Positions 11,901 through 56,313 of a DNA stretch of 64,000 bases are shown in pieces; position 1 is the first letter of the stretch, and each line of letters begins with the position of its first letter. Under the pieces are notes generated by a model. The model saw only the letters and a list, made by a program, of their open reading frames with translations, was not told the DNA's origin and made no database searches. The position numbers were made by a program, and so were the translations under genes. Source of the DNA: Podarcis cretensis (Eukaryota); assembly GCA_951804945.1 (NCBI GenBank), contig OX638149.1, positions 134,726,001 through 134,790,000 on the forward strand, written 5' to 3'.

Positions 11901-12559
11901 GGCTGTATCTGTGAGGTTGAACTGAAGTTATAGTGTTAGACATAATGAAAACAGCTAGGTTCCAATGATAAGGTTTGGAAACCAAAGGTGCTCTCAAAAC
12001 CTAGTAACTAGTTTGTTTATTTAAGACCATTTGCATACCACTTAGTACATAAACTATCTCTTAAGCAGTGCACAGCAATTAAAAAACACAAATATTACAG
12101 AAAATCTATCATAAAACCATCAATGTAGAGTGCTGAAGATGAATTTCTAGTCATAACAGTTCCTCATCAGCATATTACCCTAGTGCTGAAAGGTTTGGCA
12201 GTTGCTGCCAGTACATTACTAAGCTAGTTTAAGGTCTTATTGGTGGTGTATAAAGCCCTAAACAGCCAAGAACAAGGTTACCTTATATCGTCCAGATTGT
12301 TCCATGTTACCACATATTTATTTAGTACTGTATTTTATGACGTTTTCATGCTTTTATCGTACACTGCTATTTTTCAATGAGTTGGTTGTTTATTTTATTT
12401 ATAAGAAAAATTCTAAATACAGATGACCAAGAACGTCAATTAAAAGCAAAGAAGAACAAATAAAACATTATGACATACAGGGGGCAAGGTTCAAGTTTAA
12501 CAATCAGTACTATCTACTGTTTGAAAAACAATCCTCAGAATTGCATTCCATCATTCCAC

Positions 12560-13029
12560 AGAGGGTAGGGCCGTTTGAGGTAGTGGGGCAAATTAACACT
12601 GTGTCGTTCTGGCTCAGACTGCCAGCTTCGATGAAGATCCATCCAGTGTTCCATAGGGCTCTCCTGTCACCAGTCACTCCAGCCCACCGATATCAGAAGC
12701 CTAGGCAAGCACCCCCTCCTCCCGTACTGGTGAAGAATCAAGAGGAATAGGAGGTGGAGGAGATATTGGACACTAGATTTTTCAGGAGAAAGTTGCAGTA
12801 TTTGGTGACCTGGAAGGGTTATGGACCTGAGGAAAGGCGAGAGAGGCGAGGATGTATGTTCCCCTGCATTGCAGAGAGTTCCATCGCCATTACCCACACA
12901 AGCCCAAACCTAGAGAGTGGGGGGAGGAGGCTAACCAAGAAGAAGAAGAGTGCAGGATGGGGGAGACCGGAAATGAGGGAGCCCTTCACAGCAGGCAAAG
13001 AGGAGGAGGGAGGACTTAGAGGAGGGTGA
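12560..13029 (+). mobile_element. Ty3/Gypsy chromovirus 3' internal region: degenerate integrase C-terminus, chromodomain and polypurine tract
   Basis: GPF motif (GPFEVVGQINTVSFWLRLPASMKIHPVFH); chromodomain [26 protein letters not shown]...FHRHYPHKP with a stop and frameshifts; purine tract at 13000-13028. Confidence 0.92.
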
Positions 13030-13497
13030 TGTCAGGAACATGCCTTCTCCAAGTGGATCCTCCCAGTGCCAGCGAAACCTCAGAGGGAGAAGGGGGGCAG
13101 ACGGATTTACACAGGGAGAGTAACGGTAGCTCTCCCCCCCTCAGGAATGCCAGACACAGATTCCACGGATTCCCATGAGGCAGGATGAGTTGAAGTGGGG
13201 GTCGGCTCGAGAGGGTGAAGGAGAAGGGAAGGAACAAGCCCTCCCAGAATCTCCTCACAGTCGGCGCATGAGCAGACTCCAGGACCAATGTCAGCCACGC
13301 AGGAGGTGGGGGCAGCGTAGGACGTTACTCTGCTGGAAGGGGAGGAGCCAGACACTGGAGCTATCTGATTCTTCTGGAGATGATTGATCGTAGGGGCTAG
13401 GAGTGAGCTACTGTGCAATTACCCAATAAATCCAAGAAACTATAAAACTGTCGGCTTGCTGTGTCTTGGTGTGAGAGGAGCAACATAAATCCTTACA
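13030..13497 (+). mobile_element. 3' LTR of the Gypsy chromovirus
   Basis: TGTCAGG...CCTTACA directly after the PPT; AATAAA at 13425. Confidence 0.85.
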
Positions 13498-13924
13498 ACT
13501 GATGCACTTGATCCAGTGGTACCAGCTTTTCAAAGTCCAATAGTCATTTACAGCTCCAGAGTACCAATGCTGTTTGATTGTGAGTCTGTTTGTGGGTTTG
13601 GCTGTGTGTTCTGCTGGAGCACATGGACTGAGGCCGAGGGGTTACTGCTGAGAGGAAGCCAGATGGAAGGAGGAAATGTTGTGGGTGGAGTTAACAGACA
13701 GCAGCAGTTCTTCGCTGACTGCAGCTTCTGGTAGCTCATAAACAGGGGTGTTTGTGGGGGTGTTTAGTGGCACTCCAAGGTGACTTTGGAAGGTACAGTG
13801 GGGGGGGGGGACACCTGGCTTGCCAGTAGTACATGTGAAGAGGATCTGGGGGGTCTTTGTAGACCACAAGCTTAACATGAATCACATGGAAGACATTTGT
13901 CTCCTGCTCTAGAGGGTAGAGGGT

Positions 13925-14707
13925 CCTCCTGGATTCTTTGCTGTCGCTTGAGGCTCAGGTCACCTCAGTGGCCCAGAGTGCCTTCCATCAGCTTCGGCTG
14001 GTGGCCCAGCTATGCCCCTATCTGGACAGGGATAGCCTAACAACTGTTGTCTGCGCTCTGGTAACCTCAAGGTTAGATTACTGCAATGTGTTATATATAG
14101 CGCTGCCTTTGAAGACGGTTCAGAAACTTCAGCTGGTGCAGAATTCAGCAGCCAGGTTGCTCACTGGAACAATATGGTTTGAGCATATTATACCAGTCCT
14201 GGTCCAACTGTACTGGCTACCGATTAGTTTCCAGCCCAAATCAAAGTGCTGGTTTTGACCTACAAAGCCTTAAATGGTTCAGGACTGCAATACCTCAAGG
14301 ACCACCTCTTTCCATATGAACCTACCCGGACCCTAAGATCATCCTCTGAGGCCCTTCTTTGTGTGCCTCCTTGAGAGGTCAGGAGGGTGGCAACACGAGA
14401 ATGGGCCTTCTCTGCAGTGGCTCCCCTTCTGTGTAATGTTCTCCCCAGGGAAGTTTGCCTGGCGCCTTCACTATATACCTTTAGGCGCCAGGCAAAAACA
14501 TTCCTTTTCAACCAGGCCTTTGCCTGACTTGATCTACATCCTACAGTATACCCTTTTTAAAATGCTGGCTCTTTGGGGTTTTTTTTTATTGGGTTGTTTT
14601 TGTTTTGATTTTATGTATTTGATATTTTATGTGAACTGCCCTGAGACCTTTGGGTGTAGGGGGGTGGTATAGAAATTAAATTAAAATAAATAAATAAATA
14701 AATAAAT
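13925..14707 (+). mobile_element. L2-clade LINE 3' end with (TAAA)n tail, inserted in a CR1 remnant
   Basis: VCALVTSRLDYCNVLYIALPLKTVQKLQLVQNSAARLLTG; CR1-like sequence on both sides (about 13840-13920 and 14710-14770). Confidence 0.88.
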
Positions 14708-29048: not shown

Positions 29049-30331
29049 GCATGAGACAAAAATGAAGTATTGGAGGCAATGATGTCACGTATCCATTTCC
29101 TGCTCCTGACTTTAGAATTTCAACGAGCAAGAAATTAGGTTTGCTTTTGTTAATTGTGATCAGCTATTAATCAAATATAAACAGGTTGCTGAAGCCTTTG
29201 CTGTACATTTGACAAAGCACACCTCTTGTACCCTGATGACAAAAAATATAATCTGACGTTTTTGGGAATAGAATTAGTTAAAGCATCGGGTAACCACCAA
29301 CAGCATGCACATCCAGGTTTTCAGCTCCATCATTCTATTTATCTACATATCTTTGGAAGTTTGCTTTCAGGTAAAATTTTCTATGAAGACAGGGCTCGCT
29401 GCCTACAAACGGTCTTAATTTAGTGTTTGCTGCTGTCAGAACATGTAATGCCATAACCTGAGCTCTTCTGCTGACAGGAGGTCAGATGTGAGAACTGAGA
29501 AGTTTGTGGAGTCTCATAATGGATAGTGGAACATTACAATCGAGTAAAGAACAGTGTCTTATATGTTTCTTAATTAATTATGTTCTTGGGTGGATTTGAA
29601 ACCAATATTGCTTTGGTTTTGTTTTAAATAGAAAGTAGTTGTCATTTGTATTGATTCCTACAAGCTTTGCAACTTTACAATTAGACCTCTACAAACTGAT
29701 TAAGGGTTGACCTATTTAAAAAGCTATATAAAAAGAATACAGTGGTAAGAAGTAGTAGTGTAGAGAGCAATTAGAAAGCAGAAGGAGCTAAAAGTTGGTA
29801 ATGCCCCGCCAAGGCCCGGCAAAGGGCCTTCTGCCAGCTCCCAAAGCCCTTACTCTGCCCATTCATCTGTCCACTCTGAGCTTGTGAGCAAGGGCAAGGG
29901 AAAGGAAAATAAGAAGCTTTTCTTGCATTTTGCCCTTTCCCTCTTGGCAGCAGTGTAGAAAGGATCCCGAGGGAGAAGGCAAACAAATAGCCTGGGAGGT
30001 GGGCCTACTCTCAAATACCATTTTACCCAACAGCCCTCCTGGAATATCTGTCCCTAGTTTAATATATATATTTCCTTAAAGTCTTTATATTGGTTGCCCA
30101 GTAACATAATTCTCTGGGTGGCTTACAAAGATAAGATAATATCAAAAATAATTGTAGCAGAGAGACCTAAAACCAAATTCACAGTACAACTAAAAAAATA
30201 TCAAAATATATATCAAGGGAGATAATAGATTTTCAAAATCTAGGAGGTAAAAAATGTATTTTTCTGTTGCTGACAATACCTTTCTCTAATTACCAACTTC
30301 CTTTTGTGGCAATGTTCAAAACTCAGATATA

Positions 30332-42651: not shown

Positions 42652-43014
42652 AAGGTAAAGGTAAAGGTACCCCTGCCCGTACGGGCCAGTCTTGACAGAC
42701 TCTGGGGTTGTGCGCCCATCTCACTTAAGAGGCCAGGGGCCAGCGCTGTCCGGAGACACTTCCGGGTCACGTGGCCAGCGTGACATCGCTGCTCTGGCGA
42801 GCCAGAGCCGCACACGGAAACGCCGTTTACCTTCCCGCTGGTAAGCGGTCCCTATTTATCTACTTGCACCCGGAGGTGCTTTCGAACTGCTAGGTTGGCA
42901 GGTGCTGGGACCGAGCAGCGGGAGCGCACCCCGCCGCAGGGATTCGAACCGCCGACCTTTCGATCGACAAGCCCTAGGCGCTGAGGCTTTAACCCACAGC
43001 GCCACCTGCGTCCC
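42652..43014 (-). mobile_element. Full-length young Sauria SINE
   Basis: (ACCTTT)n tail, tRNA-like head with B box, 12-bp TSD AAGTTGCTCTTA (42640-51, 43015-26). Confidence 0.93.
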
Positions 43015-43386: not shown

Positions 43387-43686
43387 GGGACGTGGGTGGC
43401 GCTGTGGGTAAAACCTTAGCACTTAGGACTTGCCGATCGCATGGTCGGCAGTTTGAATCCCCGCGGCGGGGTGCTCTCCCGTCGTTCGGTCCCAGCGCCT
43501 GCCAACCTAGCAGTTCGAAAGCACCCCCAGGTGCAAGTAGATAAATAGGGACCGCTTACCAACGGGAAGGTAAACGGCGTTCCGTGTGCTGCGCTGGCTC
43601 GCCAGCCTATAGAGTGAGATGAGCGCACAACCCTAGAGTCTGGCAAGACTGGCCCATACGGGCAGGGGTACCTTTACCTTTACCTT
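43387..43686 (+). mobile_element. Sauria SINE with an internal deletion of about 60 bp
   Basis: GGGACGTGGGTGGCGCTGTGG head and ACCTTTACCTTTACCTT tail; lacks the CACGTGACCCGGAAG segment seen in its siblings. Confidence 0.9.
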
Positions 43687-43755
43687 AACTGAAGATTCTT
43701 TGGAAATAATAGTATTTTCTGGCCTGTCTATACCTAGTATTTGGAAGACACAATT

Positions 43756-44142
43756 TATCAGAGACATGGCAGAGGGGGAGGAAGAGGCAGAGGAAAACAG
43801 AAGGCTGCCTGTCACTTCTCAAAGCAACACTGAGATGCAGGTGGTAGAAGGGGGTTGGATTCAACTCCAGAGGAGGAGGAATTGGCTGCACCTGAGTCTC
43901 CCAGAAGTAGGAGGCAGAGCAAGCGATTACAGCAAAAGAAAGACCAGCTGGAAGCGGGGGTGGGCTCAGCATATATCTGGCCTTGGAAGGGGCCAGAGGC
44001 CAGTCGAGTCAACTGACTCAGATAGTGAAGAATGAGCTGTGGGAGGCTCTGCTTGCAGTAAGCTTGTAATTGCCAAATAAAGCTAAAGGAGTTAAACTGC
44101 CAGCTTGCTGTGTCGTGTGTGAGAGATGTGCTAAACCTAACA
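43756..44142 (+). mobile_element. Gypsy solo LTR
   Basis: 5-bp TSD CAATT; TATCAG (mutated TGTCAG)...CTAACA; AATAAA at 44076; 3' end similar to the 13030 LTR. Confidence 0.82.
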
Positions 44143-45130
44143 CAATTGAACAAGCAATCTTTGGCTTTAAAAAAATCTGAATTTTTGGTAGGGAGAACTG
44201 CAATCGGCAACAAAATGCTGTAGTGTTATAAGTGTGTTCCTGTTCAGGATTCCAGTAGCCAGTCATCTCTTCCCTCGGGATACCATATTCCTTCCCCTCC
44301 CTTTCCACTTTTCCTTTCATTTTTTTTCCAACAGATACTCAACATTCCTTAGGCACTTAACATGCTCAATCCACATTGGGCTGTTTTGGGATTTTATTTT
44401 ATTTTATTCCCCTCTCAGGTGGTAGCTTGCTTTGTAAAGTTGACTTGTACTGCAAGCCTCAAGGTTCTTCTGATTATGCTGATACCTCCCTTTGTTTTCC
44501 TGTTGACCCCATTGTGGCTCTAATCCAGTTGGTATCACTGTATGAGATTGCTGTTAGAGGGAGTGTGGTATAATATATTAATTTACATATTTGGATCAGC
44601 AGTACTGAAATTAAGTTGGCAGGTATTTTGATTAAGTGGTGCATATCTTTGCCTGCTGATCAAAGTTATTGTATTTTTAGAGTACAATAGCAACACACTC
44701 TTGACTTAAGTTAACAATCAAATATGTGTATCTAATGTGGAACTACATGAGATGAAACACATAAACAACACAACTTGGCAGTCCTCTTCCTCACAACATG
44801 GTTTGTACACAATTTTAATGAATATAATGGAGTGTGTAATGAGTTACTGAAATAATGGCTTGCATCTCAAGAACTGTGGGTGGCATTTTGCTTGCACACA
44901 GTGGGCCTTTCTTCCCCACTCTTTCTGCTGCAGTGGGGTCCCCTGCTCAGGCTTAGATCCAAAGGTCCTTTGAACATGATGTATTTAGGACACTTGGAAT
45001 GTTGCATACCTTCCAGCATTTCTCAAATGGAAATTGGGGTGTCCTAAGGAAAAGCGGGACATTCCAGGATCAAAGCAGAAACTGAAACAGCTTCTGTAAA
45101 TCTGGCATTATTTGCAGACATGCATGGTGG

Positions 45131-46160: not shown

Positions 46161-47048
46161 GCAACTCATCCAACATGACTAGACTAGAGAATGCTCTGGA
46201 CAACCCTTGAGATTTGTCTACTATAAAAGTGGAGTCAAGATCCTGGTCAAGGCAAGCAGTAACGCCATAGTGAGGATGCAATGGAGGCAGCAAAGTACGC
46301 CTTCTTTGCTGCCTTCACTGCCACTAGGTAGGCTTGATGATGAGCTTTCACCAGTTTTCGGTTGCATTCAGCCTAGTTTTTCCTCCACTTGTGTTTGAGC
46401 CATCTCCCAACTCAAGGTGTTACAATGCAGTGATGTTATACGAAGACTGCATGTGTATAGAATTTACACAGGTTTAGGAGTGGTGCACTAGTATTCAGTA
46501 AATGCTGTCTTGGGCTCCCTTGGGAGGAAGGATGGGATGAGATATGATATGATATATGATATGATATCATTTTTCTCTAACTAAAATGCCCCTCCTTTTA
46601 AGCAAAGAGTTGCAACATGACTATTTTTGCAAATTAGGGATCACGTGATTGTTTTAAAGCCTGTTTTACATTATTTAAAGACAGTCATAGCAGCCATTAT
46701 TTGAACAGATGAGGCTTCTGTTGTGCGACCACTGATTGTCGTCATCACATCAGCCAGTTAAAGTAACAGTGGAGGCTAATCTGCCCAGTAAGAAACGTGG
46801 TGGGTGTTTGTGATCACTTACTCATCTGCATGATGATTAGCACTGTTTGAGAAAGAGAACTTCTACAAATTGATAATAAACTGCTTTTTCATACTAAAAC
46901 TTCACTTTAAAACATTTACAGCATTCTAAAGGTTAGTTTTGTGGCCTTCACATAAGTCACCTTTCTGCAAGCACAGCTAGATAAAATATGTCCTGTCAAC
47001 AGTGCTTAGTCACTATTGTCCTCAGCTGGAAATGGTGGGGAGAATATA

Positions 47049-47411
47049 AGGTAAAGGTAAAGGTACCCCTGCCTGTACGGGCCAGTCTTGACAGACTCTG
47101 GGGTTGTGCGCCCATCTCACTCAAGAGGCCGGGGGCCAGCGCTGTCCGGAGACACTTCCGGGTCACGTGGCCAGCGTGACAAAGCTGCATCTGGCGAGCC
47201 AGCGCAGCACACGGAAACGCCGTTTACCTTCCCACCAGTAAGTGGTCCCTATTTATCTACTTGCACCCGGGGGTGCTTTCGAACTGCTAGGTTGGCAGGC
47301 GCTGGGACCGAGCAGCGGGAGCGCACCCCGCCGCGGGGATTCGAACCGCCGACCTTTCGATCGGCAAGCCCTAGGCGCTGAGGCTTTTACCCACAGCGCC
47401 ACCCGCGTCCC
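47049..47411 (-). mobile_element. Full-length young Sauria SINE
   Basis: Near-identical to the 42652 copy; GGAGAATATA duplicated at 47039-48 and 47418-27. Confidence 0.93.
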
Positions 47412-54412: not shown

Positions 54413-55328
54413 TATATGGTTATGGTGTTATACTGATAGATTTGTCAGCTGGGGTCTCATTCACCCTGGAGGGAACACACACTCCCTTGCAAACAGCAGC
54501 ACAACCAAGCCAGGATTGCAGACTTTGCAGCTCCAAATGTCTGTTAATGGCACGCAACTGATAAAGAGAGACAACACCTTCTTTTCTAATAAAGAGGAAT
54601 CTTACTCCAGAATGGATCTGTTTCCGATTTCACCTAACATGACTCAGGAAGCCTACATGATGGACTCATAGAACCATATAATTGTAGAGTTTCACTAGGA
54701 AGAGGATAGTGCAACTCATCTATGTGAGTTTAGGACTTTTTATTTTAAGAGAAAAGGTGATTTAGAGGAGTCACTTTTTGCATGGTATGCAGAAAGCTTT
54801 ACTTTCTATCTCAACGCTAGAACTTGTGGACATAAAACTGGACGTTGGAAGTTTTACTGCAGACCAAAAGAGTACTTCACACAGCCCATAAAGAGGTGTT
54901 GATGGCCACAGACTTTGATGCCTTCAAAATAAGATTCATGGAGGAAAGGATCTATTAATGGCTGCTCCACTCTCAGTTGCTGGGAAATACAAGTGGGCAG
55001 AGTCCTGCATTCAGGCATCCCATGGGCATCTGGTGAGAACAGGAAGCTGGGCTAGATGGGCCATTAGCCTGATCCAGGCTCCTCTTATTTTCTCATGAAG
55101 CTAATAAAGGGTCTCCAAGCCACAGTCCTCTTCAAAATGCCCCAATAGAAGTGGGATGGGATAATTTTAATTATTATAAAAAGAAAGTTCAGCAAAAATT
55201 GAAGATAGTTGTAATCTCTGACAGTAGTCCCTAACTTGGATTGTGCAGTTACTTTTTATTTTAAAATTGCAAAATATTTGCTAACTTCCTCTTAGTCATT
55301 TATAAGCAAAAGTCTATTTCAACACATG

Positions 55329-55744
55329 TGTCAGGGAGAATTCAGAGGAGGAAGTGACAGAAGAGGCGGAGCAGGGGCTCGGGGATGCTATGGTGCCCTT
55401 CAGCCGCCCAGAGACAGAGGAAGCGGAAGAGCGGGCGGATGTTGCAGAGCCCTTCACCACCCAGAGGCCCCGGAAGGGAGCTCAGACTCTGGAAGGGAGG
55501 GGGCTTTCAAATCAGCACAGACAAGGAGGGAAATGAAACATAAGGGTCAAAGATGTCTCATGCAATTTTCCCGCCTCCTTTGTTGGCGGGAGAATCGAAG
55601 GAAACCACTCCCCGAATCTGACTCAACGGATTCAGATGCATAATCCTGAACTGTAGCTGTTTCTTGCACATATGTAATAAAAAATGTAAATATCAAGCCG
55701 ACTGTGCCGGGGTGTTAATGTGAAGGGGAGACACCACCTTGACA
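55329..55744 (+). mobile_element. Gypsy solo LTR
   Basis: TGTCAGG...CCTTGACA; 5-bp TSD ACATG; AATAAA at 55676. Confidence 0.9.
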
Positions 55745-56313
55745 ACATGTTGTACAGCCTTATGTGCAGTGAGCACTAATGTAGTCAAATTATCACATCA
55801 GCACTGCTCTGTTTGCACAAATGCCAAGGGTATCCTCAAAAAGAAAAGCAATGGCTATCAATATAGTGGGTGTATTGTAGGAATTTATTGATTGATTAAT
55901 GTGTTTTGAGTTTAACTTCAACTACCACATTGCCCACAGCTGACTAAGATGAAGTTGCCAGTTAATGATAACTGTAGGCAATTACGTATGTTGTATTTTA
56001 CTAGCACAAGAGATTGTGTGCAGATCTCAGTTTAACAGAAATGCTTGCATGTAGGTAGCAGAAGTAAAGTGTATTTTTGATGCACTATGCTGCTTTACAG
56101 CAATTGCTGTGCAGATATTCAGAACAGATTGGATGTGTTGTTGCATATTATTATTATTTCTGTAGGAATCCGTTTGGTGTACTGAAGTCCTAATGGAATA
56201 TGCCACGACCTTCCCCACACAAACTGACTGCCCAAATCCCCTTGAAAACAGCTCCACAGAAGGTGGTACCCGTGTTAAGCTGTGCTTCTGTCAGCAAGCT
56301 GAGAGCTGTGGGT

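Follow-up and report, generated by a model that had tools for sequence, protein, structure and literature searches.

Three decayed long terminal repeats (LTRs), probably of lizard Gypsy chromoviruses, encode in their U3 regions a peptide in which an acidic tract is followed by a basic block, a Trp motif and a second acidic stretch. We favor, as likely, the reading that this peptide is a disordered tail fused to the integrase, which probably serves as an import or tethering platform. That pol reads through into the LTR, and that the tail it gains there is under selection, we consider highly probable. The read-through principle is already known from plants; the vertebrate tail itself is real and is new as a variant. 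The analyzed stretch of DNA (the window) is 64,000 nt of the Podarcis cretensis genome (GCA_951804945.1, contig OX638149.1, positions 134,726,001-134,790,000, forward strand). Positions 12556-13497 are the decayed 3′ end of a lacertid-type Gypsy chromovirus (copy A) with an SH3 domain, a chromodomain, a purine tract and an LTR. Two solo LTRs (B and C) accompany it. The features are:

12556..12675, + strand: GPF/SH3 (Tf2-1-like) integrase C-terminal domain of copy A (Pfam PF24626, SH3_Tf2-1, E 9.8e-10)
12748..12834, + strand: chromodomain of copy A (Pfam PF00385, E 1.9e-5, and translation)
12849..12920, + strand: post-chromodomain helix F-H-x-x-Y-P-x-K-P of copy A (tblastn frames), in a frame that differs from that of the chromodomain, with the break near 12840
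12921..13005, + strand: acidic linker of copy A from the chromodomain to the polypurine tract (PPT), with one break near 12950; the nearest relative is P0175 (Podarcis lilfordi)
13006..13029, + strand: PPT of copy A, G-G-L-R-G-G in the pol frame, which changes within the tract
13030..13497, + strand: 3′ LTR of copy A, TG...CA, 468 nt, an apparently old insertion common to two other organisms
13031..13387, + strand: U3-encoded tail of A, 118 codons net; the 5′ part is broken and 13130-13384 is open for 85 aa
13244-13282, + strand: PESP/basic motif of the A tail (translation)
13325-13342, + strand: LLCWKG of the A tail (translation)
13361-13384, + strand: LSDSSGDD of the A tail (translation)
13385-13387, + strand: stop codon of the A tail (translation)
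13425..13430, + strand: AATAAA of LTR A, then a GT-rich stretch resembling that of LTR B
43756-44142, + strand: solo LTR B, TA terminus, AATAAA at 44076, target site duplication (TSD) CAATT (43751..44147 with the TSD)
43757-44035, + strand: tail of B, 92 codons net; the basic/Trp motif is in another frame (43834-44013)
55329-55744, + strand: solo LTR C, TG terminus, AATAAA at 55676, TSD ACATG (55324..55749 with the TSD)
55330-55643, + strand: tail of C, with one frame change

Copy A is truncated at its 5′ side directly upstream of the SH3 domain, at about 12545-12562: tblastn matches to relatives begin at 12544-12556 and contigs from elsewhere align from 12562. The window retains no RT. A homologue search with the SH3-chromodomain region returned this architecture in 211 of 269 candidates, and Podarcis, Xenopus, Heteronotia and Lacerta are the sources of the best named relatives. 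In a tree of this region, from which 2 of the 21 chosen database rows were left out, A groups weakly with P0176, P0001 and P0122 (73/83). The chromodomain of A scores 24.9 bits against a curated cut-off of 25.1, and thus falls 0.2 bits below it in a copy that is decayed. A premature stop (12748-12750) occupies its first cage position, and the W-K-G-Y cage residues are retained. Further frame changes and two stops (13121-13129) interrupt the 5′ part of the LTR.

We assign copy A, and tentatively B and C, to the Tf1/sushi type of chromoviruses (Ty3/Gypsy, Metaviridae), with which they share a GPF/Y-SH3 domain followed by a chromodomain (in A), a PPT, TG/TA...CA ends, 5-bp TSDs (on B and C) and an AATAAA close to the LTR's 3′ end (PMC3601003). 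They differ from that type in what follows the chromodomain. The post-chromodomain motif is present in 164 of 281 fetched proteins, with a median of 18 residues beyond it, whereas the U3 of the lizard elements codes for about 100 residues. The U3 of the Sushi LTR model is described as T-rich (PMC3601003), in contrast to 15-17% T in the U3 of the window LTRs.

Contigs X5 and X14, from two other organisms, span insertion A plus both of its flanks (window 12400-13600), so that by this comparison copy A is old and fixed. Both contigs have 12 extra bases at 12935 relative to the window. A very high-copy short repeat begins exactly at the 3′ end of LTR A (13497-13560), with a summed contig depth of about 6000 versus 20. 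One contig from a run guessed to be RNA covers 13247-13493 at a depth of 2.8 and carries no weight as expression evidence. The window also contains direct and inverted repeat copies, which we take to be LINE-like and SINE-like, at 13920-14556, 42652-43014, 43406-43687 and 47048-47411.

B and C are the sole objects in the window that passed a scan for LTR ends, TSD and AATAAA. A fourth LTR candidate, at 29611, was dropped because it has neither LTR ends nor a TSD. C is tied to chromovirus proteins through peptide similarity, and B is tied to A alone, both through its peptide (1 of 2000 residue shuffles reaches the A-B score) and through the 3′ end, which is non-coding (0 of 500 shuffles). In the GT-rich stretch after AATAAA, positions 416-448 of LTR A are 88% identical to 44094-44125 of LTR B. 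The basic/Trp motif of B lies in a frame different from that of its start and acidic end. In both A and B, the frame of the LTR start is also the frame of the terminal acidic-Ser peptide despite the shifted middle, and the start frame of B has 92 open codons; this coincidence may be due to chance (one in three for each).

An earlier note on this DNA had claimed that the three LTRs share a peptide layout. Translation confirmed that the LTR starts at 13030, 43756 and 55329 read V-R, I-R and V-R from the second base. All of the basic, Trp (LLCWKG, IWPWKG, LLCWRE) and acidic-Ser (LSDSSGDD*, STDSDSEE*, SDSTDSDA*) peptides that it quoted are present, and the stops fall 37, 40 and 32 nt ahead of AATAAA (13425, 44076 and 55676), as it stated. 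The shared layout goes beyond chance for A and C in shuffle tests and is weaker for B. The note had also read EDLEEGDVR across the PPT of copy A. The peptide exists, and D-V-R is right at the LTR border, but upstream of the PPT it is in the wrong frame: this frame opens no earlier than 12977, and relatives do not match it there (173-688 of 1000 shuffles reach the score). The frame that reads EEEGGLRGG matches P0122, P0175 and P0001 (0, 1 and 5 of 1000 shuffles, respectively) and stops at 13027-13029. Given that this is the matching frame upstream and that D-V-R is right at the border, copy A switches frame inside the PPT. Upon translation of A, B and C, no copy was open from the chromodomain to the stop. 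As all three are broken, the window alone cannot demonstrate the proposed read-through of pol into U3; what upholds it is the combination of shuffle tests and intact relatives from databases.

The top match to a query with only the SH3-chromodomain region was P0001 (P. lilfordi). This protein and its cluster mates P0121 and P0122 run past the chromodomain via G-G-L-R-G-G-x-D-V-R plus 100 further residues, in which an acidic tract, an Arg/Lys-rich block, W-S-W-R and S-D-x-E-E follow in order. P0001 and P0121 (P. lilfordi) align colinearly and gap-free with P0122 (P. muralis), with 103 residues open from D-V-R. A second family is represented by P0176 (Logan), which is about 50% identical to P0001/P0122, likewise has 103 residues from D-V-R, and ends in L-L-C-W-K-R...L-S-D-S-A-S-D. 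Its 1425-nt ORF fills a 1528-nt contig with hardly any room for an intron, and thus P0176 is not a spliced model. For P0001, P0122 and P0176 the LTR border was judged from the protein. We infer that D-V-R marks the LTR start in them, as A, B and C show the same reading at their LTR borders and the protein ends match those of the TSD-bounded solo LTRs.

These two (P0122/P0001 and P0176) were the only independent intact families found. A homologue search with the P0001 tail, covering proteins of 661-2000 aa, gave 0 hits among 919 candidates scored. A profile search with the tail gave 3 among 8000 scored candidates, two of them the profile's own members and the third P0275. The search of representatives was crowded with multi-chromodomain proteins, and the rows examined were the 68 of 149 new ones that have the post-chromodomain motif. 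The terminal pattern of Trp followed by S/T-D/E-S/T occurs in 3 of the 281 fetched proteins, all from the tail families. Related DNA was not found in viral contigs or JGI metagenomes, and the tail had no usable match in the ESM Atlas and, in any frame, none in Pfam. Three other proteins, P0241 (Rhineura floridana), P0271 (P. muralis) and P0206 (Anolis), have an acidic tract after an apparent LTR start that reads V-M. P0241, which runs on into PxSP and a basic block, matches LTR A (4 of 1000 shuffles) and lacks the Trp end.

Read-through could also be passive, with promoter or RNA reasons for the high purine and low T content of U3, a shared peptide that reflects ancestry and composition, and a tail without function. 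The low T content of U3 provides few stops, and short crossings of the PPT look common, as judged from protein: 25 of 164 chromovirus proteins seem to run over the purine tract into the LTR, in varied phases and many with short ends. The tail also diverges faster than the core (P0001 and P0122 differ at 10 of 103 positions in the LTR-coded part and at 4 of 233 in the integrase core). Against this, the probability that a fixed frame stays open for 103 codons at the base composition of U3 is 0.006-0.015, and such a frame was kept in two families, each at p of about 0.01. In addition, the Trp motif and acidic-Ser end recur at a constant distance from the stop.

Shuffles that preserve dinucleotides or residues also fall short of the scores of A and C. 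For the P0176 tail, none of 1000 dinucleotide or 2000 residue shuffles reaches the score with LTR A, and the same is true for C; the best five of 294 window tiles for this tail all overlap A or C. The P0122 tail matches C (0 of 1000 dinucleotide and 2 of 2000 residue shuffles), and the A and C peptides match each other (9 of 2000). The score between the P0176 and P0122 tails was reached by 36 of 2000 shuffles. No match was detected for B with the P0176 tail (179 of 1000 and 1247 of 2000), for B with the C peptide (1254 of 2000) or for A with the P0122 tail (197 of 1000 and 610 of 2000), and BLASTP of the A tail gave no significant match to P0122. Against P0122, a chance tile at 29611 scores 54, and B scores 45.

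The A-C identities are built on different codons, which passive read-through does not readily explain. At 15 of 18 identical degenerate residues (0.83) A and C use different codons; neutral simulations run through the same pipeline gave a maximum of 0.82 and 95th percentiles of 0.43-0.74. Selection is thus likely to act on the tail at the protein level. Nucleotide identity between A and C by codon position is 0.47, 0.53 and 0.29, and the position-3 deficit of 0.21, from an alignment that is protein-guided, is near the 95th percentile of the neutral model. U3 similarity at the nucleotide level is marginal (31, 2 and 68 of 500 shuffles). Between A and B, codons differ at 7 of 15 identical residues, a neutral-like value that passive read-through would predict. 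In combination, these comparisons argue firmly for protein-level constraint on the distal 45 residues of A, C and P0176 and tentatively for the same in B, and we consider a passive origin of the tail unlikely.

The tail might alternatively be an accessory protein of its own, comparable to nef, sag or a sense additional ORF, made from a spliced RNA or by the LTR, or cut from the integrase by the protease. Its layout is conserved by itself and it has its own poly(A) signal, and proteolytic release is compatible with the data. However, both intact families have the peptide in the pol frame, A, B and C have no ATG position in common, and Met is absent from the P0122 tail. HIV nef and MMTV sag are separate genes that overlap U3 and have their own start. 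They resemble the lizard tail in that coding sequence within U3 has a double role, and differ from it in that the tail shares the pol frame and lacks a shared ATG. A P. muralis gene model would also seem to favor an accessory protein: P0275 (UniRef A0A670JKR6, annotated as a phospholipid-transporting ATPase) ends in 41 residues of the LTR tail of the P0176 family, with 6 differences from P0176 over these terminal residues, 4 of them conservative. The simplest account of this model is a join made in gene prediction, and an artefact of that kind is more likely than an exonised LTR. We regard a separate accessory protein as decidedly improbable and read-through of pol as the better explanation.

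The absence of a shared ATG also bears on the solo LTRs, each of which the earlier note took to leave a working small ORF. This idea is not supported. U3 sits upstream of an LTR's own transcription start, and so a tail from a solo LTR would need host read-through or splicing. With its stop and poly(A) signal and no shared ATG, a solo LTR is at most a latent last exon. Another suggestion, that the promoter overlaps coding sequence, fared better. Only 101-110 nt of non-coding LTR follow the stop in each of A, B and C, and as U3 is almost wholly coding, upstream promoter elements probably overlap the coding sequence; the overlap is likely, although no TATA shared by A, B and C was found. TATAAA at 13441 does not qualify as a shared promoter, since it lies downstream of AATAAA and is missing from B and C. 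In the mechanism we propose, the genomic RNA would bear U3 (as U3-R) at its 3′ end, and the ribosome would pass the PPT and stop 32-40 nt ahead of the poly(A) signal, leaving a very short 3′ UTR. U3 would then have two functions, one as promoter DNA (5′ LTR) and the other as coding RNA (3′ LTR).

The tail of roughly 100 residues, conserved and disordered, that the earlier note put forward is supported by the intact relatives, the shuffles, the A-C codon usage and predicted disorder. By charge-hydropathy, both intact tails fall below the boundary and the integrase core, as control, above it. AlphaFold prediction for P0001 gave pLDDT values of 93-98 for the majority of the SH3 and chromodomain blocks and <50 for most of residues 253-362, where the low values may partly reflect a shallow alignment. 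A weak helix was predicted from the Trp motif to the tail end, and the alignment is shallow there. A single-sequence prediction for P0121 gave no useful information (mean pLDDT 51). Five CK2-type sites are present in each intact tail.

Attached to an integrase, a disordered chain that combines a basic block with a hydrophobic, phospho-acidic end suggests nuclear import or host-factor tethering, and from these sequence features we judge such a role moderately probable. The basic block could act as an NLS or as a grip on nucleic acid or nucleosomes, and the Trp motif, together with the CK2-type acidic end, could be a phospho-tuned binding motif. The tail may instead have been selected as an RNA- or DNA-binding or particle-assembly segment, and an Arg-rich block set in an acidic disordered chain would suit nucleic-acid chaperoning. 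However, the invariant Trp, its hydrophobic neighbors and the CK2-type terminus better suit a protein-binding motif, and the upstream linker of the same proteins bears what appears to be a textbook host-binding motif (see below). A role confined to nucleic-acid binding or assembly thus seems very improbable, and import or tethering is the preferred function.

The closest parallel to read-through into the LTR comes from plants. In all CRM group A elements the polyprotein frame enters the 3′ LTR, where the CR motif, a putative targeting domain, is encoded (PMC3059260), and the polyprotein frame also extends into the 3′ LTR in Beetle7 of beet and in Bingo1 of the Reina clade (PMC3605345). The lizard elements may resemble CRM group A in this respect (the frame is open in P0122/P0001 and P0176, with the LTR border judged from protein, and broken in copy A), and the tail would be analogous to the LTR-encoded targeting domain of CRM elements. 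They differ in that the CR motif replaces the chromodomain, whereas the lizard elements keep a chromodomain upstream of the PPT and gain a separate disordered tail from the LTR. The hosts of CRM are plants and the host of the tail is a vertebrate; the lizard tail, without a Pfam match, is set beside the CR motif by description only. The earlier note knew of no description of this tail. Read-through into the LTR is no novelty in principle. For vertebrates, no description of an LTR-coded integrase tail was found in the literature covered, which lay outside Repbase/Dfam, supplements and most subscription journals; PMC7264820, in the part consulted, treats separate additional ORFs. If the reading is correct, the dual use of U3 as promoter and integrase code, so far described for plant centromeric elements in the literature covered, arose in vertebrates with an unrelated tail, and this tail is a short candidate by which reptile retrotransposons may achieve import or targeting. 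The peptide also recognizes solo LTRs that are barely linked by nucleotide alignment, and would account for odd C-termini of lizard gene models such as P0275.

When examining the chromodomains we noted that both outer aromatic cage residues (Y24- and Y48-like) are lost in P0001, P0121 and P0122 (T, L) and in P0176 (H, E). Both are missing in 6 of 132 scored chromodomains. Group II chromodomains, which are without the cage, are reported only from plants in the consulted part of PMC3350952. Copy A keeps the Y48-like residue and has a stop as its first cage codon, and so does not fall into group II. Between the chromodomain and the PPT, in the region matching 12921-13005, an acidic-flanked F-x-G-F occurs in P0001, P0121, P0122, P0123 and P0208, and twice in P0176. 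Among the 281 fetched proteins the acidic-flanked motif is present in 10, and in 6 of them it follows the chromodomain. The linkers are acidic and 9 residues long, and AlphaFold predicted a helix just ahead (236-248 of P0001). Neither the linker of copy A nor the tails of A, B and C contain FxGF. As copy A keeps W-K-G-Y without FxGF, the LTR tail and the FxGF motif are separable.

The TND-interacting motif (TIM) consists of a helix, a CK2-phosphorylated acidic linker of 8-16 residues and FxGF, and every known LEDGF/HRP2 partner has FxGF according to the consulted part of PMC9987994. The relatives P0001, P0121, P0122, P0123, P0208 and P0176 have this layout in their sequences and the window copies do not. 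Like the TIM/IBM of the LEDGF/HRP2 partners KMT2A, JPO2 and IWS1, P0122/P0001 and P0176 combine a hydrophobic helix, a 9-residue acidic S/T linker and F-x-G-F; unlike it, their FxGF precedes the PPT, outside the LTR, and is known from sequence alone. All ESM Atlas matches of the FxGF linker were below 0.8, and a search of PDB sequences with P0123 brought up chromodomain proteins, with no LEDGF-ligand peptide among the best 60 of 65. No report of FxGF motifs in Gypsy integrases was found in the literature covered (again outside Repbase/Dfam, supplements and most subscription journals). A tentative and rather doubtful scenario is that a disordered extension grew across the PPT and U3, after which two sub-families lost the cage, gained FxGF and were retargeted in the manner of LEDGF-dependent integration. 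The retargeted families would move from reading heterochromatin to H3K36me3 gene-body tethering, like lentiviruses, through mimicry of a cellular motif, and the LTR-coded Trp/phospho-Ser tail would be a second host-binding or import module. FxGF in the cage-less relatives thus points to a possible use of the LEDGF/HRP2 tether by retrotransposons.
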